Notes under the pieces: model-generated
What the model saw: only the letters and a program-made list of their open reading frames with translations
The model's database searches: none
Told to the model about the DNA's origin: nothing
DNA from: an uncultured bacterium
Lineage (GTDB): Bacteria; DRYD01
Direction: 5' to 3'
Assembly (NCBI GenBank): GCA_937139605.1
Contig: CAKZQG010000043.1
Span: 6,692-70,691 of the forward strand
Length of the DNA stretch: 64,000 nucleotides
In this document: in pieces, positions 15,645-37,452 of the stretch
How the letters are laid out: the number at the start of each line of letters is the position of its first letter
Numbering within the stretch: position 1 is the stretch's first letter
Position numbers and translations under genes: made by a program

Positions 15645-16601
15645 TTAATAAAAAATTCTCCTAATTTTTGAGAAATCTATTACATCCACTTTTTTATTAT
15701 TTATATCATTTTTTATAACTTTAAAAATTAAAAAATTATAATCAGGGATTATTTTATAAAAAATTTCCTCAACCTCTTTATTAACATTATTTTGAGTCTC
15801 TATATATTTTACTTTAATATTTTTTAAATAAGGAGTATAGTCAAAATCAACTAAATCATTTAACAAACTCTTTATAATTTCTTCGCTAAAATTGATAAGG
15901 TAAAAAACCAAAAAATTATAAATAAAACTACCTAAAATACTTATTACTTTTTCTAAATTTTTCAAACTAAAAAAATCTATTATATCTTTAATATCTTCAT
16001 TATATTTTATATCATTAAATTTTTTTAAAATAAATGTCTTTAAAGAAATAGGATAATGATCAAAAATATTTTTATTTTGTTCAAAATAATCTTCTATTTC
16101 ATTAAGTAAATTAATTCCTATGCCTATAATTAGGTTATCTTTAAAAGTTTCTATTAAAATCCCCCCTAACTTATAAATATTATCATTTTCAACTAAAACT
16201 ATATCGTTAGGAAAAATAACCCTTAAATAATTTTTTAAATCATCTTGTAAATTTAAAATTTCATTAAAATTAAAAATAGAACTTAAGTACTTAGAAAAAG
16301 ATAAAATAGACTTTAAAACAATAGTACCGATAAATACAGATATTAAATTAAAATACTTTTTAGGAATTTTTTCAGAAAGGATAGATAAAGGGAAATTAAC
16401 TGATAAATACAATCCTCCTCTAAGGGATACCCAACTTCTATTATTGCTTCCCTTACCTTTATATTGGATAAAAGCATTTACCACGATTATTTTTAATTGA
16501 TTTTGATTTAAATAATTAATTTGTATTTCTTTTTTTAAGTATTCTTGTGTAGAATCTACTGAATTTAGGATTATTTTTGATATTTTAATTGGTTTTACCA
16601 T
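15645..16601 (-). CDS. birA: Biotin--protein ligase (no HTH, monofunctional type)
   Basis: SVDSTQ, QYKGKG..NRSWVS..GGLYLSV, FPNDI, KLGGILIE, IGIGINL. Confidence 0.85.
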   Translation of the reverse strand: MVKPIKISKIILNSVDSTQEYLKKEIQINYLNQNQLKIIVVNAFIQYKGKGSNNRSWVSLRGGLYLSVNFPLSILSEKIPKKYFNLISVFIGTIVLKSILSFSKYLSSIFNFNEILNLQDDLKNYLRVIFPNDIVLVENDNIYKLGGILIETFKDNLIIGIGINLLNEIEDYFEQNKNIFDHYPISLKTFILKKFNDIKYNEDIKDIIDFFSLKNLEKVISILGSFIYNFLVFYLINFSEEIIKSLLNDLVDFDYTPYLKNIKVKYIETQNNVNKEVEEIFYKIIPDYNFLIFKVIKNDINNKKVDVIDFSKIRRIFY

Positions 16602-17515
16602 TAAGAGATTAAAGCATTTTCAAATTTAGAAGATATAATATTTTGAAGATTAAGTTTAATACTAACTGCTCTATGATCACTAGCAACAGTAGCTAACGGA
16701 TTATCATATTTACCTGTTATATCAAAACTACCTTGAACAACATTTAATTTTTCTTTTGCTTTATCATTAAGAAAGATATAATCTAATATATGAGCTCCAT
16801 ATTTAGGGTTATTGCTGTAATGGGTTGGTAAATTAGTTTCCTTAGATAAATTATCTAAATTCCTAGTATCAGTAAAATTAGCATTTTTAATAGTAGAAAT
16901 GGTAGCAGAATCAGGGGAATCATTGAAATCACCCATTAAAATAGCAGGCATATTACCTTTTTTAGCATACTCTATGAGTTTAGCTGCTTCTTTTTGACGT
17001 TGAATATCAGACTCTGGGCCACCCCTCTTAGATTTAAGATGTACTGAAAATATTTTAACATTAAAACCTGGAGCTAATTCTACTATAGCTTCAACAGGCG
17101 GTCTTTTAAAGGTTGTATCATTTTCATGGATATTTACTTTCTTTATAGGAAATTTTTTACTTATCAGCAAAGCTGCAGCTATACCCCTATTATCACTTTT
17201 ACCTACAATAATATTATATTTATCTTTTAAACCTGCTATTCCTAATAACTCTTGTAGTGCTTCTTTATTTTCTACCTCTTGTAAAGCAACTATATCACTA
17301 TTATTTTGTTTTAATATTTCTGCTAACGCTTTTAACTCTTTCTCACGTTTCGGAGGGCCATCATCCTTATTAGGATCATCTACTTTATCAAACAAATTCT
17401 CAACATTATACGTTGTTAATTTTACCTCATTATTTAAGCTATTATTTAAATTATTATTAGTTTTCTTAGAATTCAGCAAATTTATAACATTAGAATTATA
17501 ATTATTAATAATCAT
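16601..17515 (-). CDS. Endonuclease/exonuclease/phosphatase (EEP) family protein with Asn-rich N-terminal leader
   Basis: TYNVENLF, DIVALQEVE, VHLKSK, MGDFND, LDYIF, SDH motifs. ATG at 17515 follows SD GTGAGGT. Confidence 0.85.
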   Translation of the reverse strand: MIINNYNSNVINLLNSKKTNNNLNNSLNNEVKLTTYNVENLFDKVDDPNKDDGPPKREKELKALAEILKQNNSDIVALQEVENKEALQELLGIAGLKDKYNIIVGKSDNRGIAAALLISKKFPIKKVNIHENDTTFKRPPVEAIVELAPGFNVKIFSVHLKSKRGGPESDIQRQKEAAKLIEYAKKGNMPAILMGDFNDSPDSATISTIKNANFTDTRNLDNLSKETNLPTHYSNNPKYGAHILDYIFLNDKAKEKLNVVQGSFDITGKYDNPLATVASDHRAVSIKLNLQNIISSKFENALIS

Positions 17516-17532
17516 AAAAATATACCTCACTA

Positions 17533-17617
17533 AAATTATTTTTCTTAATATTAATATAATCATTTTTAAAAAAAAATCAAATAAAAAATCATAAAAATTA
17601 ACATTTTTTTTACATAT
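17533..17617. repeat. Direct repeat copy 1 flanking hicBA (85 bp)
   Basis: Matches 18156-18238 except two substitutions and an A-tract of 9 vs 7; contains TTAACA-N5-TTTACA at 17598-17614. Confidence 0.9.
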
Positions 17618-17635
17618 TTTTAGCTAATTTTATCA

Positions 17636-17869
17636 CTATTTTAGGGATATCCATTCTTTCAAAGTTATTTCTCGTCCTAAAATTTTTGATACTTCACGCA
17701 ACATAATACGTAATTGAGGAACAGAATACTCTTCATTAGAAGGAATAGCTAAACGATATTCATTATAAACCATATATTGGTGCCTTGTACCAGAAAAAGG
17801 TCCATCAAAACCTAATTGCCGTAGTTTTTTAATAAAATCTCTACGCTTACAAGGAGTCCAACGATTCAT
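17636..17869 (-). CDS. hicA: Type II toxin-antitoxin HicA family toxin
   Basis: IKKLRQLGF.GP.SGTRHQYM (G-x-H catalytic His), 77 aa, basic. Confidence 0.85.
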   Translation of the reverse strand: MNRWTPCKRRDFIKKLRQLGFDGPFSGTRHQYMVYNEYRLAIPSNEEYSVPQLRIMLREVSKILGREITLKEWISLK

Positions 17870-18119
17870 AAACTGGCTCCTTGTTTAAATCAATCCCATC
17901 AATTACTGGCAATTTGTGTTTCATTTTTAATCCTAACCATATCCATTCTTCTAAAGTAGATCTTAAATTGTTTTCACACTCCATTAACGTAGAACCAAAA
18001 GCTACAACACCTGTACAAATAGGAATATACCCTACAAATGTCCCATCTTCCAATTTATCATAAACAGCTTTTTCCATCGCTTGTCTAACATAATCACTAA
18101 ATAAAAATTGAAAACTCAT
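17847..18119 (-). CDS. hicB: Type II toxin-antitoxin HicB family antitoxin (short, no DNA-binding domain)
   Basis: EDGTFVGYIP..GVVAFGSTL.E..NL...LEEW...LP; overlaps hicA and lies upstream of it. Confidence 0.85.
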   Translation of the reverse strand: MSFQFLFSDYVRQAMEKAVYDKLEDGTFVGYIPICTGVVAFGSTLMECENNLRSTLEEWIWLGLKMKHKLPVIDGIDLNKEPVYESLDSL

Positions 18120-18155
18120 TCACTATAACACCTCAATTTAATTACCAATACTTAT

Positions 18156-18238
18156 AAATTATTCTTCTTAATATTAATATAATCATTTTTAAAAAAATCA
18201 AACAAAAAATCATAAAAATTAACATTTTTTTTACATAT
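18156..18238. repeat. Direct repeat copy 2 flanking hicBA (83 bp)
   Basis: Matches 17533-17617; contains TTAACA-N5-TTTACA at 18219-18235. Confidence 0.9.
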
Positions 18239-18348
18239 AAAAAAATAAAAACAAGCTAAAAACTATAGAATTTAAATAATTAAAAAGGAGAATGTCTAAA
18301 AATTTTTGAAATAAAAAATAGAGTGGTAGAAAAAGGGGGTAGATAAAT

Positions 18349-19458
18349 ATGTCAATAAATCCAATTGAATCAAACAACATAAAACCAATATCAGATACCA
18401 AAATACCAGATACCAAAATAAATACTGCAAATAATAATCCTACAACTACTAATAGTGCTATTTCTCCAACAGATACTATAAATACAAATCAAAGTTCTCC
18501 ACAAAATTTATCAGAAAATGTTCAAAATGAAAATACCCAAACTACACAAGAGCCACCTTTAGAAATGAAGCTCCAACAAGCTTTAACAGACAATAACTTA
18601 CCCCTTGAAGAAAAAATAAAACTAATAGATCAATTAATATCCCAAAAAAAACAAGAACTACAAAATATAGATAATGAAATAAATAATTTAAGAAATAATC
18701 CAATGAATACCCCAAATGATCCTGTTGCTCAAAATATTTTAAATATATCAAATCAAAATAAAATATTATCTTTAGAAAATCAAAGAAGTGCAATAAATAA
18801 TCAGATATCAATGTTAGAAGCTACCAAAAATAATCTAATAAATCTAAACAACCAAACCAGAAATTTAGCTTCCCAATTGGATAGTATTAATTCTGCTTAT
18901 GATACAAGCCTTAATCATCTTAAAATACTAAAAGAACAATTACAACAATATCATCAATCAATGGCAGCCAATTACACTAAACAAATAGAGATACTAAATA
19001 ACCAAATTAATCAAATAGAAAAGGAGATCCAAGATCTACTAAATACTCAGCCATCTAACCCTGATGAAGCAAATCAGATAGCACAGCAAATAGCTCAGAA
19101 AAGATCATTACAAGATGTTCTAAAAAACCAACTAGAAGGTACAAAACAACAATTATTTTCATTAAATCAAAATGTTCAACAACAGATAAAAGACTTAGAT
19201 GATCAAATAGCTAATACAATAAAAGAAAAACAATTAAATTATTATCAAAAATGGGCTTTAGATCAATCAATAAGAAGAGAAATAGAAAACATAGTATGGG
19301 GAGAAATGTTAGCTGAAAAAAACCATGTACTTCAGATGTGGAAAATGTATTATGATTATACTCAAAAAGTAAGACAAATGTGGCAAGATATATACACAAA
19401 ACAATTAGCAAATGAAACCTCATTTGTTCAAGCCTGGTCAGCAGTACTAGGAAAATAA
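18349..19458 (+). CDS. Hypothetical Q/N-rich coiled-coil protein with low-complexity N-terminus and Trp/Met-rich C-terminal segment
   Basis: 369-aa ORF with SD GGGGGT; S/T/N/P-rich N-terminus, long heptad-like Q/N/L region, C-terminus QMWKMYYDYTQKVRQMWQDIY...QAWSAVLGK. Confidence 0.8.
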   Translation: MSINPIESNNIKPISDTKIPDTKINTANNNPTTTNSAISPTDTINTNQSSPQNLSENVQNENTQTTQEPPLEMKLQQALTDNNLPLEEKIKLIDQLISQKKQELQNIDNEINNLRNNPMNTPNDPVAQNILNISNQNKILSLENQRSAINNQISMLEATKNNLINLNNQTRNLASQLDSINSAYDTSLNHLKILKEQLQQYHQSMAANYTKQIEILNNQINQIEKEIQDLLNTQPSNPDEANQIAQQIAQKRSLQDVLKNQLEGTKQQLFSLNQNVQQQIKDLDDQIANTIKEKQLNYYQKWALDQSIRREIENIVWGEMLAEKNHVLQMWKMYYDYTQKVRQMWQDIYTKQLANETSFVQAWSAVLGK

Positions 19459-26011: not shown

Positions 26012-26075
26012 AAAATAGTTAATAAAATGTAAATAGAGCCTAAAAATCACTAATTTTAGTAACATTTTTTTAACA
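25995..26075. promoter_or_regulatory. Array of 11-bp-periodic hexamer boxes upstream of the 26129 gene
   Basis: TGTTAA-AGTTAA-AGTTAA-TGTAAA at 25995, 26006, 26017, 26028, plus GTAACA-N5-TTAACA at 26059-26075; TATAAT at 26095. Confidence 0.55.
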
Positions 26076-35280: not shown

Positions 35281-35323
35281 TTCAAAATTATTAATTAATT
35301 AAAATATTTTTGTAAAAAAATTG

Positions 35324-35722
35324 TTAAAAATAAATAATTAACAAAGAATTAGCAACTGTTAAATCCCTTTCATGTGAAATACTTACTTTAACTATAAAAT
35401 CTTTAACATCCTTACTAAAAAAATTTGATAATTTAACTAAAATATAATCTTTATTAACAAAATCTACAGAATTATTTAAAATCGAGATAGAATTAAAATT
35501 AATCTTAAAAGATAAGGCTTTAATGATAGCTTCTTTAGCAGCAAACCTACCCGCTAAAAACTCTACCCTTCTTTTATAATTAAATATCTTACTATATCTT
35601 TCAATTTCAAAAATACTTAAAACCCTTTTAATAAATCTAAAATTATAAATATTTTTTGATATTCTTTTATTATAAACAATATCTATCCCTGTATTAATAA
35701 AGAAGTGATCATTAAATAACAT
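35324..35722 (-). CDS. acpS: Holo-ACP synthase
   Basis: GIDIV, FLAGRFAAKEAIIKA, VSISHERD. Confidence 0.93.
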   Translation of the reverse strand: MLFNDHFFINTGIDIVYNKRISKNIYNFRFIKRVLSIFEIERYSKIFNYKRRVEFLAGRFAAKEAIIKALSFKINFNSISILNNSVDFVNKDYILVKLSNFFSKDVKDFIVKVSISHERDLTVANSLLIIYF

Positions 35723-37435: not shown

Positions 37436-37452
37436 TTAACATCTTTTTTACA
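37436..37452. promoter_or_regulatory. TTAACA-N5-TTTACA box upstream of the FliF-like gene
   Basis: Exact TTAACA-tcttt-TTTACA in the intergenic region. Confidence 0.6.

Follow-up and report, generated by a model that had tools for sequence, protein, structure and literature searches.

A hicBA toxin-antitoxin pair inserted between two copies of a predicted host promoter

INTRODUCTION

Little is understood of the way in which toxin-antitoxin pairs become established in chromosomes in the absence of a mobility gene. For gene complexes of restriction-modification systems, insertion with long target duplication was reportedly described by Nobusato and co-workers in 2000 (Gene 259:99). We know of no established insertion mechanism even for the restriction-modification cases. 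Units of this kind that lack mobility genes were found to insert with a long target duplication and to be amplified via the resulting repeats (Furuta, Abe and Kobayashi 2010, PMC2853133). The criteria used there were repeats of more than 30 bp, a single-copy counterpart in a relative without the insert, absence of a mobility gene or other mobile element, an insert below 20 kb, uniqueness of the repeat in the genome and a restriction-modification cargo. Among HicAB toxin-antitoxin systems, a HicB protein without a DNA-binding domain and the gene order hicBA are both common (PMC11594946).

The insertion style without a mobility gene has so far been described for restriction-modification genes, and in the locus presented here the cargo is a hicBA pair and the target a predicted promoter. 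The repeats are longer than 30 bp and unique in the genome, relatives have a single-copy counterpart, and the insert is below 20 kb and without a mobility gene; the cargo is not a restriction-modification system. The locus thus works like the long-target-duplication class, yet stands outside the class as first defined. It probably represents a horizontally acquired hicBA addiction module that was inserted with a long target duplication into the promoter of an operon for an EEP nuclease and a BirA-like protein, with host recombination acting between the promoter copies afterwards.

RESULTS

Structure of the hicBA locus

The locus lies in a window of 64,000 nucleotides, the whole stretch of DNA that was analysed. 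Its features, in window coordinates, were as follows.

15645 to 16601, minus strand: biotin-protein ligase-like (birA-like) gene, second in the target operon, with its start overlapping the stop codon of the EEP gene.
16601 to 17515, minus strand: gene for an EEP-family nuclease/phosphatase, 304 amino acids as called in public assemblies; first gene of the target operon.
17533 to 17617, minus strand: predicted promoter copy A, 85 nt with a T9 tract, 5' of the EEP nuclease-birA operon; TTGATT-16-TATATT in a promoter scan.
17598 to 17614, minus strand: upstream box TGTAAAAAAAATGTTAA in copy A, the same genome-wide box as in copy B.
17618 to 17635, minus strand: 3' end of the insert, 18 nt past the hicA stop codon; no terminator predicted.
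17636 to 17869, minus strand: hicA, 77 amino acids; divergent HicA with an invariant His30; 23-nt overlap with hicB.
17847 to 18119, minus strand: hicB, 90 amino acids; UPF0150/HicB N-terminal domain only.
18120 to 18155, minus strand: 5' end of the insert and hicB leader, with the Shine-Dalgarno sequence GAGGTG and a GGTGTTATAG motif in common with the cassette of a second species.
18156 to 18238, minus strand: predicted promoter copy B, 83 nt with a T7 tract, 5' of hicB; adjoins the ancestral upstream intergenic region.
18219 to 18235, minus strand: upstream box TGTAAAAAAAATGTTAA in copy B, one occurrence of a box associated with promoters throughout the genome.
18349 to 19458, plus strand: gene for a coiled-coil protein, divergent; conserved left flank in every lineage.

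The original prediction had described direct repeats of about 84 bp with two substitutions and A tracts of nine and seven residues, and all of this was confirmed at 17533-17617 and 18156-18238. The two copies were 97.6% identical. They differed at 17541 (T) versus 18164 (C), at about 17582 (T) versus 18203 (C), and in the length of the tract, which is A9 in copy A and A7 in copy B on the plus strand and hence T9 and T7 on the coding strand. The distance from start to start was 621-623 nt, and the blocks of uninterrupted identity between the copies measured about 33-35 nt.

The 538 bp between the copies contained only hicB and hicA, as had been noticed from the sequence before, and reached from the Shine-Dalgarno sequence of hicB to 18 nt past the stop codon of hicA. 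As the insert is hicBA alone, no mobility gene was inserted with it, and no transposase or integrase was found at the locus either, in agreement with the earlier reading. The predicted positions of the copies just upstream of the two Shine-Dalgarno sequences were likewise correct: copy B ends 36 nt before the ATG of hicB and copy A 17 nt before that of the EEP nuclease gene (17515), with the Shine-Dalgarno sequence in the gap in each case. A search of 17300-18500 against Rfam matched no RNA family.

A whole-genome search gave only these two full-length copies; the remaining matches were partial and rich in A and T. In a self-BLAST of the genome, only seven direct repeats were 50 nt or longer and lay no more than 4 kb apart; the pair described here was the only non-coding one among them that brackets genes.

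HicB and HicA

HicB matched PF21748 over residues 9-71 with 93.5 bits (E-value 7.6e-27; cut-off 27.3) and the structure 2DSY (TTHA0281) with an E-value of 5e-8. Pfam and NCBIfam gave no match beyond this N-terminal domain, and a DNA-binding domain is thus absent. HicA was more difficult to assign. Its match to the Pfam family HicA_toxin was weak (0.069; 6 of 10 relatives were below 0.01), the divergent HicA proteins scoring 13.7-23.2 bits as against a gathering cut-off of 27, and single-sequence and profile searches of PDB sequences yielded no HicA match, so that a fold search was needed. The AlphaFold2 model (pLDDT 89.2) had the elements alpha-beta-beta-beta-alpha. With Foldseek its best match was 1WHZ (TM-scores 0.71/0.77), followed by the HicA chains of 6G26, 6HPB and 5YRZ, and His30 was invariant in 10 homologs. 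According to the model, HicA has the dsRNA-binding-like HicA fold with the conserved catalytic histidine, and it is predicted to be toxic.

No second hicBA copy was found in the genome. Close homologs of the pair were present in an integron-like cassette array on a chromosome of the Pyrinomonadaceae (L052). Most of 12 distant hicBA homologs had no flanking direct repeats, and two of the loci lay within repeat arrays; the subfamily is thus not generally flanked by duplications.

Promoter character of the repeat

The repeat consists of the TGTAAAAAAAATGTTAA box, an A/T tract and TGATTATAT, an architecture that recurs throughout the genome. Matches to the box peaked 80-120 nt 5' of the starts of open reading frames (23 of 94 matches genome-wide) and were followed by a common downstream element. 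The box and the -10 element of the repeat, but not its spacer, also occur in other promoters of the class. In line with the earlier suggestion that both genes appear to have the same promoter and box, the repeat is a full instance of this architecture. Although the promoter scan gave a hit in copy A, consensus sites for sigma-70 were no more frequent in the region than in shuffled sequence. The repeat is very probably a promoter, judged by the genome-wide architecture and by its position rather than by mapped transcription starts. Owing to the difference in the T tract, the -35-like and -10-like elements are 2 nt closer together in copy B; such a change had been anticipated, and it was fixed in all assemblies.

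Empty and occupied sites in the genus

The original prediction had called for relatives with a single copy of the repeat between the same two genes. Such empty sites were present in at least seven lineages of the genus (G002, L058, L078, L081, L082-84, L085 and L086), as one promoter copy in the roughly 210 nt that separate the coiled-coil and EEP genes. In addition, a second species (G001, L071) was occupied by hicBA at the same site. Its repeat was longer (184+ nt, about 190) and 98% identical between copies with a spacing of 751, and a third, truncated promoter copy of 46 nt was also present. In the L080 lineage, the contig begins within the promoter at a point 30 nt ahead of the T tract, which would be expected with two copies of the promoter.

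The spacer between the hicA stop codon and the repeat measured 176 nt in this species. Compared in both orientations with the upstream intergenic region of the genome studied here (G000) or of G002, it showed no similarity above that of shuffled sequences, and a search of five genomes gave no further occurrence of part X, its repeated portion of about 130 nt.

With two genes and three lineages, the species tree was a star (133, 139 and 147 informative sites), and it was resolved only after lineages had been added. The two occupied species were not sisters. The split between G000 with L078 and the G001 type with the G002 group had 100% support, and each occupied species had a sister lineage with an empty site. 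The synonymous divergence (dS) between the occupied species was 0.93-1.03 for hicBA and 0.76-0.94 for the flanking genes. Given this similarity in divergence and the presence of hicBA in the second species, the arrangement is not young. The original prediction had named as evidence against itself a state in which all relatives carry both copies and hicBA is as divergent as its flanks. A roughly equal divergence was observed, whereas the presence of both copies in all relatives was not, as empty sites exist.

These data bear on the question of whether hicBA entered the promoter once or twice. Two independent insertions of related cassettes from a circulating pool, into the same promoter of the G000 and G001 lineages and without a recombinase, would have left long target duplications of variable length. 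The repeats would then be young, and neither concerted evolution nor repeated loss would be needed. The non-sister position of the occupied species, each with its empty sister lineage, would be expected from this, as would the different length and boundaries of the duplications (85 nt versus about 190 nt) and repeats that are about 98% identical within each genome while orthologous copies differ by about 10-12% between the species. The identity of HicB and HicA between the species was also only 67-70% and did not exceed that to homologs from other phyla; for HicB, such homologs reached 71-74%, so that HicB of the second species (67%) was no nearer than many others. The Pyrinomonadaceae array shows that the subfamily is clearly mobile elsewhere. 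However, the same promoter would have to have been struck twice, with left junctions in the GGTGTTATAG leader that are nearly identical and right boundaries that coincide where the box begins. In a tree of 121 sequences built with FastTree, HicB of one species was sister to HicB of the other (support 0.92), and the two proteins had two rare residues in common, although this grouping could be aided by the A/T-driven amino acid composition of both species. Both occupied lineages had the -10 variant TATATTAAT, while the empty sites had TATTATAAT. The dS of hicBA matched that of the flanking genes, and the truncated third copy would still require an additional event. Two insertions are therefore considered unlikely.

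Variation within the species

Contigs of the species that span the site were all occupied by hicBA (21-22 contigs), and exact-protein look-ups gave no empty allele within the species. The only exception was a Logan contig that started inside copy A, 30 nt ahead of a position at which the copies differ, which is what a repeat would be expected to cause in an assembly with k=31. A metagenome scan added only one further locus. Among strains, the cassette with its repeats formed an island of low diversity, with 1 SNP in 706 nt compared to about 1.9% in the flanks. Since both diagnostic differences between copies A and B were fixed in nine of nine assemblies, no recent gene conversion was visible.

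A mini-cassette that is active at present would be excised at measurable frequency as a circle of about 621 bp, comprising one promoter and hicBA, and one crossover at the resident promoter, or at another promoter of its class, would suffice for re-entry. The identity blocks of the repeats would be available to RecA, which the genome encodes together with a ComEC-like gene. The empty sites look exactly as the product of excision would, the low diversity could reflect a recent spread, and promoters of the class at many loci would offer homology. Nevertheless, the occupancy of the site throughout the species, the fixed differences between the copies and the absence of a second hicBA or a further full repeat from the genome speak against such activity. 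As other promoters of the class have only the box and the -10 element in common with the repeat, and not the spacer, they would provide little usable homology. Current activity thus appears quite improbable.

A site-specific system, such as an integron attC cassette, an IS or MITE, or an islet moved by a tyrosine or serine recombinase, is largely refuted, although the homologs in the Pyrinomonadaceae array would be compatible with it. Both strands of the repeat folded worse than shuffled sequences (z-scores of +1.2 to +1.3), so that there is no attC-like hairpin, and the repeat is a resident promoter that is found in the empty sites too. No integron integrase above the family cut-off was detected in the genome; the best match to TIGR02249 reached 59 bits as against 265 and lay on another contig. 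The insert is hicBA only and had no terminal inverted repeats at its ends, and a duplication of 85-190 nt far exceeds those made by transposons.

An assembly artefact or chance similarity, which the G+C content of 24% with its many partial low-complexity matches and the break of the G001 contig inside the repeat might have suggested, is refuted, because nine independent assemblies (eight further public ones from NCBI, ENA and JGI) made with different pipelines agreed letter for letter at both copies including the differences between them, the G001-type locus is spanned by a JGI contig of 39.5 kb, a 22-nt core of the repeat occurred exactly twice in the window versus 0.13 times expected by chance, and the variable promoter spacer is duplicated too, unlike between other promoters of the class.

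DISCUSSION

A single insertion of hicBA with a long target duplication, followed by host recombination, remains the preferred reading of the locus. As a result of the duplication, the insert would be flanked on either side by the complete native promoter, which starts with the TGTAAAAAAAATGTTAA box and ends about 9 nt short of the Shine-Dalgarno sequence. Routes of entry other than the recombination of promoter copies suggested earlier are conceivable, and the signature fits insertion with long target duplication (PMC2853133). Copy B would transcribe hicB and hicA, whose translation would be coupled through the 23-nt overlap. HicA would act as an RNase-type toxin by means of its catalytic histidine and would be neutralised by binding of HicB. 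As HicB has no DNA-binding domain, autorepression is presumably impossible for the pair, which would rely on the promoter borrowed from the host. Copy A would keep the nuclease-birA operon under its own promoter, and since no terminator is predicted between hicA and copy A, read-through from copy B probably adds to the transcription of this operon. With its spacer shorter by 2 nt, copy B is probably the weaker promoter.

After insertion, the promoter copies would serve as substrates for homologous recombination of the RecA type by the host, no dedicated recombinase being involved. Such recombination would account for the high identity of the repeats within each genome despite the divergence between the species. 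The longer repeat and the truncated third copy of the second species look like the result of unequal crossing-over, or of amplification followed by deletion. Precise loss mediated by the repeats, lateral replacement of alleles, or both would account for occupied and empty sites over non-sister lineages. A single origin needs two precise losses together with long-term homogenisation of the repeats, or else lateral transfer, and the data do not choose between these. The toxin-antitoxin pair would be expected to select against its loss.

A more far-reaching proposal can be made only tentatively, and we consider it doubtful. The promoter-flanked hicBA pair might be a mobile element without a recombinase, which enters with the help of the host and produces long target duplications of variable length. 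In the present case, a promoter of the genome-wide class would have been captured in this way. The promoter copies would then be portable homology arms for amplification, precise loss and movement from one species of the genus to another through transformation and homologous recombination. If so, it would be for toxin-antitoxin pairs what the proposed "virus-like life cycle" is for restriction-modification units, and the island of low diversity and the non-sister distribution would be traces of a mobile hicBA unit.

The locus is a single example with an unproven mechanism of insertion. It nevertheless offers an unusually complete natural series, consisting of at least seven empty lineages, two occupied non-sister species, a truncated third copy and nine assemblies. 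It extends the signature of long target duplication from restriction-modification genes to a hicBA pair. Duplication of the promoter would solve two problems at once, as a promoterless pair without autoregulation obtains a transcription signal and the control of the target operon stays intact. The locus may also be a case of concerted evolution of short non-coding repeats that are held apart by an addictive insert.

With the insertions of restriction-modification genes, the locus shares a small addiction-type unit without a mobility gene, with direct repeats on both sides that are tens to hundreds of base pairs long. In both, the repeats align to single-copy sequence in relatives without the insert, are unique in the genome, vary in length from case to case and can support amplification, of which the truncated third copy of the G001 type looks like a remnant. 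Those insertions carry restriction and modification genes, in contrast to the type II toxin-antitoxin pair found here. As HicA is predicted to be an RNase, a role of DNA cleavage by the cargo itself, as proposed for restriction-modification units, could not apply. The duplicated target also differs in being a complete predicted promoter, which would drive a cargo without promoter or autoregulation, and the arrangement occurs in two non-sister species with different lengths of duplication.

The HicAB systems of E. coli, Y. pestis, B. pseudomallei and S. pneumoniae (PMC11594946) have in common with the pair the dsRNA-binding-like fold and histidine of HicA, the partial RNase H-like N-terminal domain of HicB, adjacent and overlapping genes, and a family widely spread by horizontal transfer. 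The order is hicB followed by hicA here, in contrast to these studied systems, whose autoregulation via an operator cannot apply, and HicA is divergent and below the Pfam gathering cut-off. Toxin-antitoxin cassettes of (super)integrons and "genomic islets" such as ccdO157 (PMC2654758) resemble the locus as minimal units with variable presence at one intergenic site, and the notion of addiction as a safeguard of neighbouring DNA against deletion between repeats is common to both. Unlike the integron cassettes, the hicBA locus has neither attC nor an integron integrase. Those cassettes carry their own promoter, whereas hicBA would use a duplicated promoter of the host.

Organization of the hicBA locus

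The hicB-hicA pair is transcribed from the minus strand of the window and is bracketed by two direct repeats, referred to as copies A and B. In the coding direction, followed by the divergent left flank, the locus was composed as follows.

18238-18156, minus strand: promoter copy B, first element
between copy B and hicB, minus strand: hicB leader, 36 nt, with SD GAGGTG
18119-17847, minus strand: hicB, 90 aa
17869-17636, minus strand: hicA, 77 aa, with a 23-nt overlap with hicB
between hicA and copy A, minus strand: stretch of 18 nt
17617-17533, minus strand: promoter copy A
between copy A and the EEP gene, minus strand: 17-nt gap with SD GTGAGGT
17515-16601, minus strand: EEP nuclease gene
16601-15645, minus strand: birA-like biotin ligase gene
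18349-19458, divergent to the minus-strand genes: coiled-coil protein gene

Copy A has 85 nt and copy B 83 nt, with two substitutions between them and, on the coding strand, T9 in A versus T7 in B. A 22-nt core of the repeat occurs twice in the window (0.13 expected), and a search of the whole genome, a 1.88-Mb MAG of 45 contigs with 24% G+C, detected the full-length repeat only as copies A and B. The exact HicB protein was present on at least 22 public contigs. At eight further loci from NCBI, ENA and JGI assemblies both copies were identical in every base, and the positions at which A and B differ were the same. The repeats described in the original prediction were thereby confirmed, and an assembly artefact was ruled out.

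The repeat does not fold into a hairpin, the insert has no terminal inverted repeats, no Rfam family matched at the locus, and no integron integrase was found in the genome. A mobility gene was also absent from the locus, as had been noted.

The repeat as a probable promoter of a genome-wide class

A box in the repeat's 5' part, TGTAAAAAAAATGTTAA, was found 102 times in the genome when one-mismatch variants were counted. Its start position peaked sharply at 80-120 nt before ORF starts: the two bins there held 23 of 94 hits, while most other 20-nt bins contained 0-4. Past the box, unrelated loci had a variable stretch of about 25-30 nt, then an A/T tract, TGATTATA(T/A)AT..ATTGAA, a GGAGG Shine-Dalgarno sequence and ATG. 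The repeat covers a single full unit of this box/A-T-tract/-10-like architecture, from which its promoter activity was inferred. The spacer differs among other promoters of the class and is shared by copies A and B, which are therefore duplicates in the strict sense rather than separate occurrences of one motif. A consensus scan gave TTGATT-16-TATATT for copy A and the same elements 14 nt apart for copy B, a difference that is fixed in all assemblies. No terminator was predicted between hicA and copy A.

Related EEP proteins in NCBI are named Candidatus Calescibacterium sp., which places the genome in the candidate phylum Calescibacterota. The genome-wide box can be written TGTAAAAAAA(N)TGT(T/A)AA, 80-120 nt before ORF starts and followed about 25-30 nt on by an A/T tract and TGATTATAT..ATTGAA; examples in the window are 35311-35327 (plus strand), 37436-37452 and 26059-26075 (both minus strand). 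One possibility is a site bound by a global regulator, another an UP-like element belonging to a promoter class of this candidate phylum. Elsewhere in the genome (G000:C27:10506-11673) there is a 499-nt tandem duplication, 94% identical, of a gene for a 99-aa protein and its promoter of the same class. The coiled-coil protein encoded beside hicBA has a C-terminal module that this 99-aa protein resembles.

HicB and HicA proteins

HicB matched PF21748 (UPF0150/HicB-like) with 93.5 bits and also the Thermus protein TTHA0281 (2DSY). With 90 aa it has no room for an HTH or RHH domain as in studied HicB antitoxins. HicB proteins lacking a DNA-binding domain and the gene order hicBA are both common according to a review of HicAB systems (PMC11594946). 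HicA was divergent, with an E-value of 0.069 against Pfam HicA_toxin; six of ten relatives were below 0.01. The AlphaFold2 model of HicA, calculated with ten homologs, had a pLDDT of 89, with a helix, three strands and a second helix in that order. Foldseek placed 1WHZ at the top, ahead of HicA chains from the HicAB complexes of B. pseudomallei, E. coli and S. pneumoniae, and His30 was invariant across the subfamily.

Pairs with 60-74% identity occur in Chloroflexota, Acidobacteriota, cyanobacteria and an archaeon, and an overlap of 20-23 nt between hicB and hicA is constant in them. Within the family and order of the window's genome (G000) the subfamily was found only in G000 itself and in the related genome G001. 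Judged by this distribution, hicBA is a horizontally acquired module. A close hicBA homolog on a Pyrinomonadaceae chromosome (OY970389.1, L052:2000-4200) lies within a cassette array. Repeats bearing GTTAATTCGGGCGTTAGGC / GCGCCTAACAAC motifs separate the cassettes at intervals of 570-850 nt and resemble integron attC sites. On a Candidatus Desulfatibia contig (L056:2673-4500) a hicB homolog lies amid three copies of a 98-nt repeat with spacings of 719 and 1011 nt, which may be another cassette array.

Empty sites and a second occupied species

The single-copy empty site predicted for related genomes was found in the same genus in genome G002, metagenome contig L058, L078 (GCA_017880035), L081, L082-84, L085 and L086. 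In these, roughly 210 nt with a single promoter copy separate the coiled-coil gene from the EEP gene, and hicBA is missing. The site was empty too in G003 and G004, which represent the family's other genus. The insert therefore consists of exactly hicBA and one extra promoter copy. A gene of 261 aa, encoding a RamC_N domain, is inserted between the EEP gene and birA in L078.

G001 had the same arrangement as G000 and was best seen on a 39.5-kb JGI contig (L071). The order there was upstream intergenic region, a truncated promoter copy of 46 nt (P0), a 130-nt segment (X) with a full promoter, hicB-hicA, about 45 nt, X with a promoter, and the EEP gene. The direct repeat of this type comprises at least 184 nt with 98% identity and a spacing of 751; X had no occurrence elsewhere in five genomes. 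The repeats of both species start at the identical promoter base, and the leader directly before hicB (GGTGTTATAG) is common to both. At the hicB-side end the G000 duplication reaches about 24 nt further. In both G001-type assemblies (L071:4836-5767 and L072) the birA-like gene is split into ORFs of 179 and 97 aa and may be a pseudogene.

History of the locus

A tree of the EEP and coiled-coil genes joined G000 to L078, which is empty, and the G001 type to the likewise empty G002 group, with 100% support; the occupied species are thus not sisters. A common origin of the two cassettes is favoured by several features of their sequences. The HicB proteins of G000 and G001 were sisters in a tree of 121 sequences (support 0.92) and have two rare residues in common. 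Synonymous divergence between G000 and G001 was 1.03 for hicB and 0.93 for hicA, matching values of 0.76 and 0.94 in the neighbouring genes, and dN was about twice as high. The -10 region contains TATATTAAT in both copies of both occupied species and in the G000-like L080, and TATTATAAT in all empty sites. Two independent insertions in the G000 and G001 lineages are a less likely but real alternative, which would account for the differing duplication lengths and for repeats that look young, with no need of concerted evolution. The raw identity between the two HicB proteins, too, does not exceed that to many foreign HicB proteins.

With a common origin the duplication would be old, and the promoter copies, 98% identical within each genome but separated between species by an indel and seven substitutions over 67 nt, would have needed homogenization, whether through unequal crossing-over or gene conversion. 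The truncated P0 would be the expected remnant of amplification followed by partial deletion. The non-sister distribution could result from two precise losses via repeat recombination, each restoring the exact empty site, or from lateral transfer of the promoter-flanked hicBA unit. Lateral transfer would fit the resemblance of P0 to the promoter of the sister group (differences at 2 of 43 positions, versus 7 of 43 to the full copies in its own genome), the mosaic EEP gene and the presence of RecA and a ComEC-like gene. In the 3' 150 nt of the EEP gene (window about 16601-16750), G000 and the G001 type (L071) share 93-94% identity, compared with about 82% overall, and this pattern points to recombination between species at the locus. 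Over the last 150 nt or so, G000 was closer to the G001 type than to its own sister L078.

Present state in the population

Nine assemblies of the species had SNPs at 1.25-2.2% of positions in the flanking genes, with clear recombination mosaics. One SNP fell within the 706 nt from copy B through hicBA to copy A, for which a naive Poisson test gave P of about 2e-5, the true significance being weaker because SNPs are clustered. There was no SNP in the upstream intergenic region, and these parts together form a low-diversity island (L059 2272-3087, window about 17533-18348). One Logan contig begins 30 nt before a base distinguishing the copies, as expected of a repeat in a k=31 assembly. The L080 contig of a related lineage likewise begins 30 nt before the T-tract, which suggests that it also carries two promoter copies.

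The original prediction of a minimal cassette that entered or can leave by recombination between promoter copies was supported in part, by the structure of the cassette and by the empty site in relatives. No empty allele was seen within the species among 21 contigs with the exact EEP protein.

Comparison with known systems

Furuta, Abe and Kobayashi used five criteria for "insertion with long target duplication" (PMC2853133), and the hicBA locus agrees with four of them. The direct repeats exceed 30 bp, the repeat aligns to a single copy in an insert-free genome, there is no mobile element, and the repeat is unique in the genome; the cargo, however, is not a restriction-modification system. 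The same authors noted that restriction-modification units amplify through their repeats, and proposed for them a life cycle that runs from invasion through amplification to release (PMC2853133). In the literature searched, seven papers contained both "long target duplication" and "toxin-antitoxin"; judged by titles and abstracts, all of them were restriction-modification studies or general reviews. Particular to the hicBA locus are a duplicated target that is a whole promoter and serves a cargo without its own promoter or autoregulator, the occurrence of the arrangement in two non-sister species with differing repeat lengths, and sequence features that suggest later recombination between the copies.
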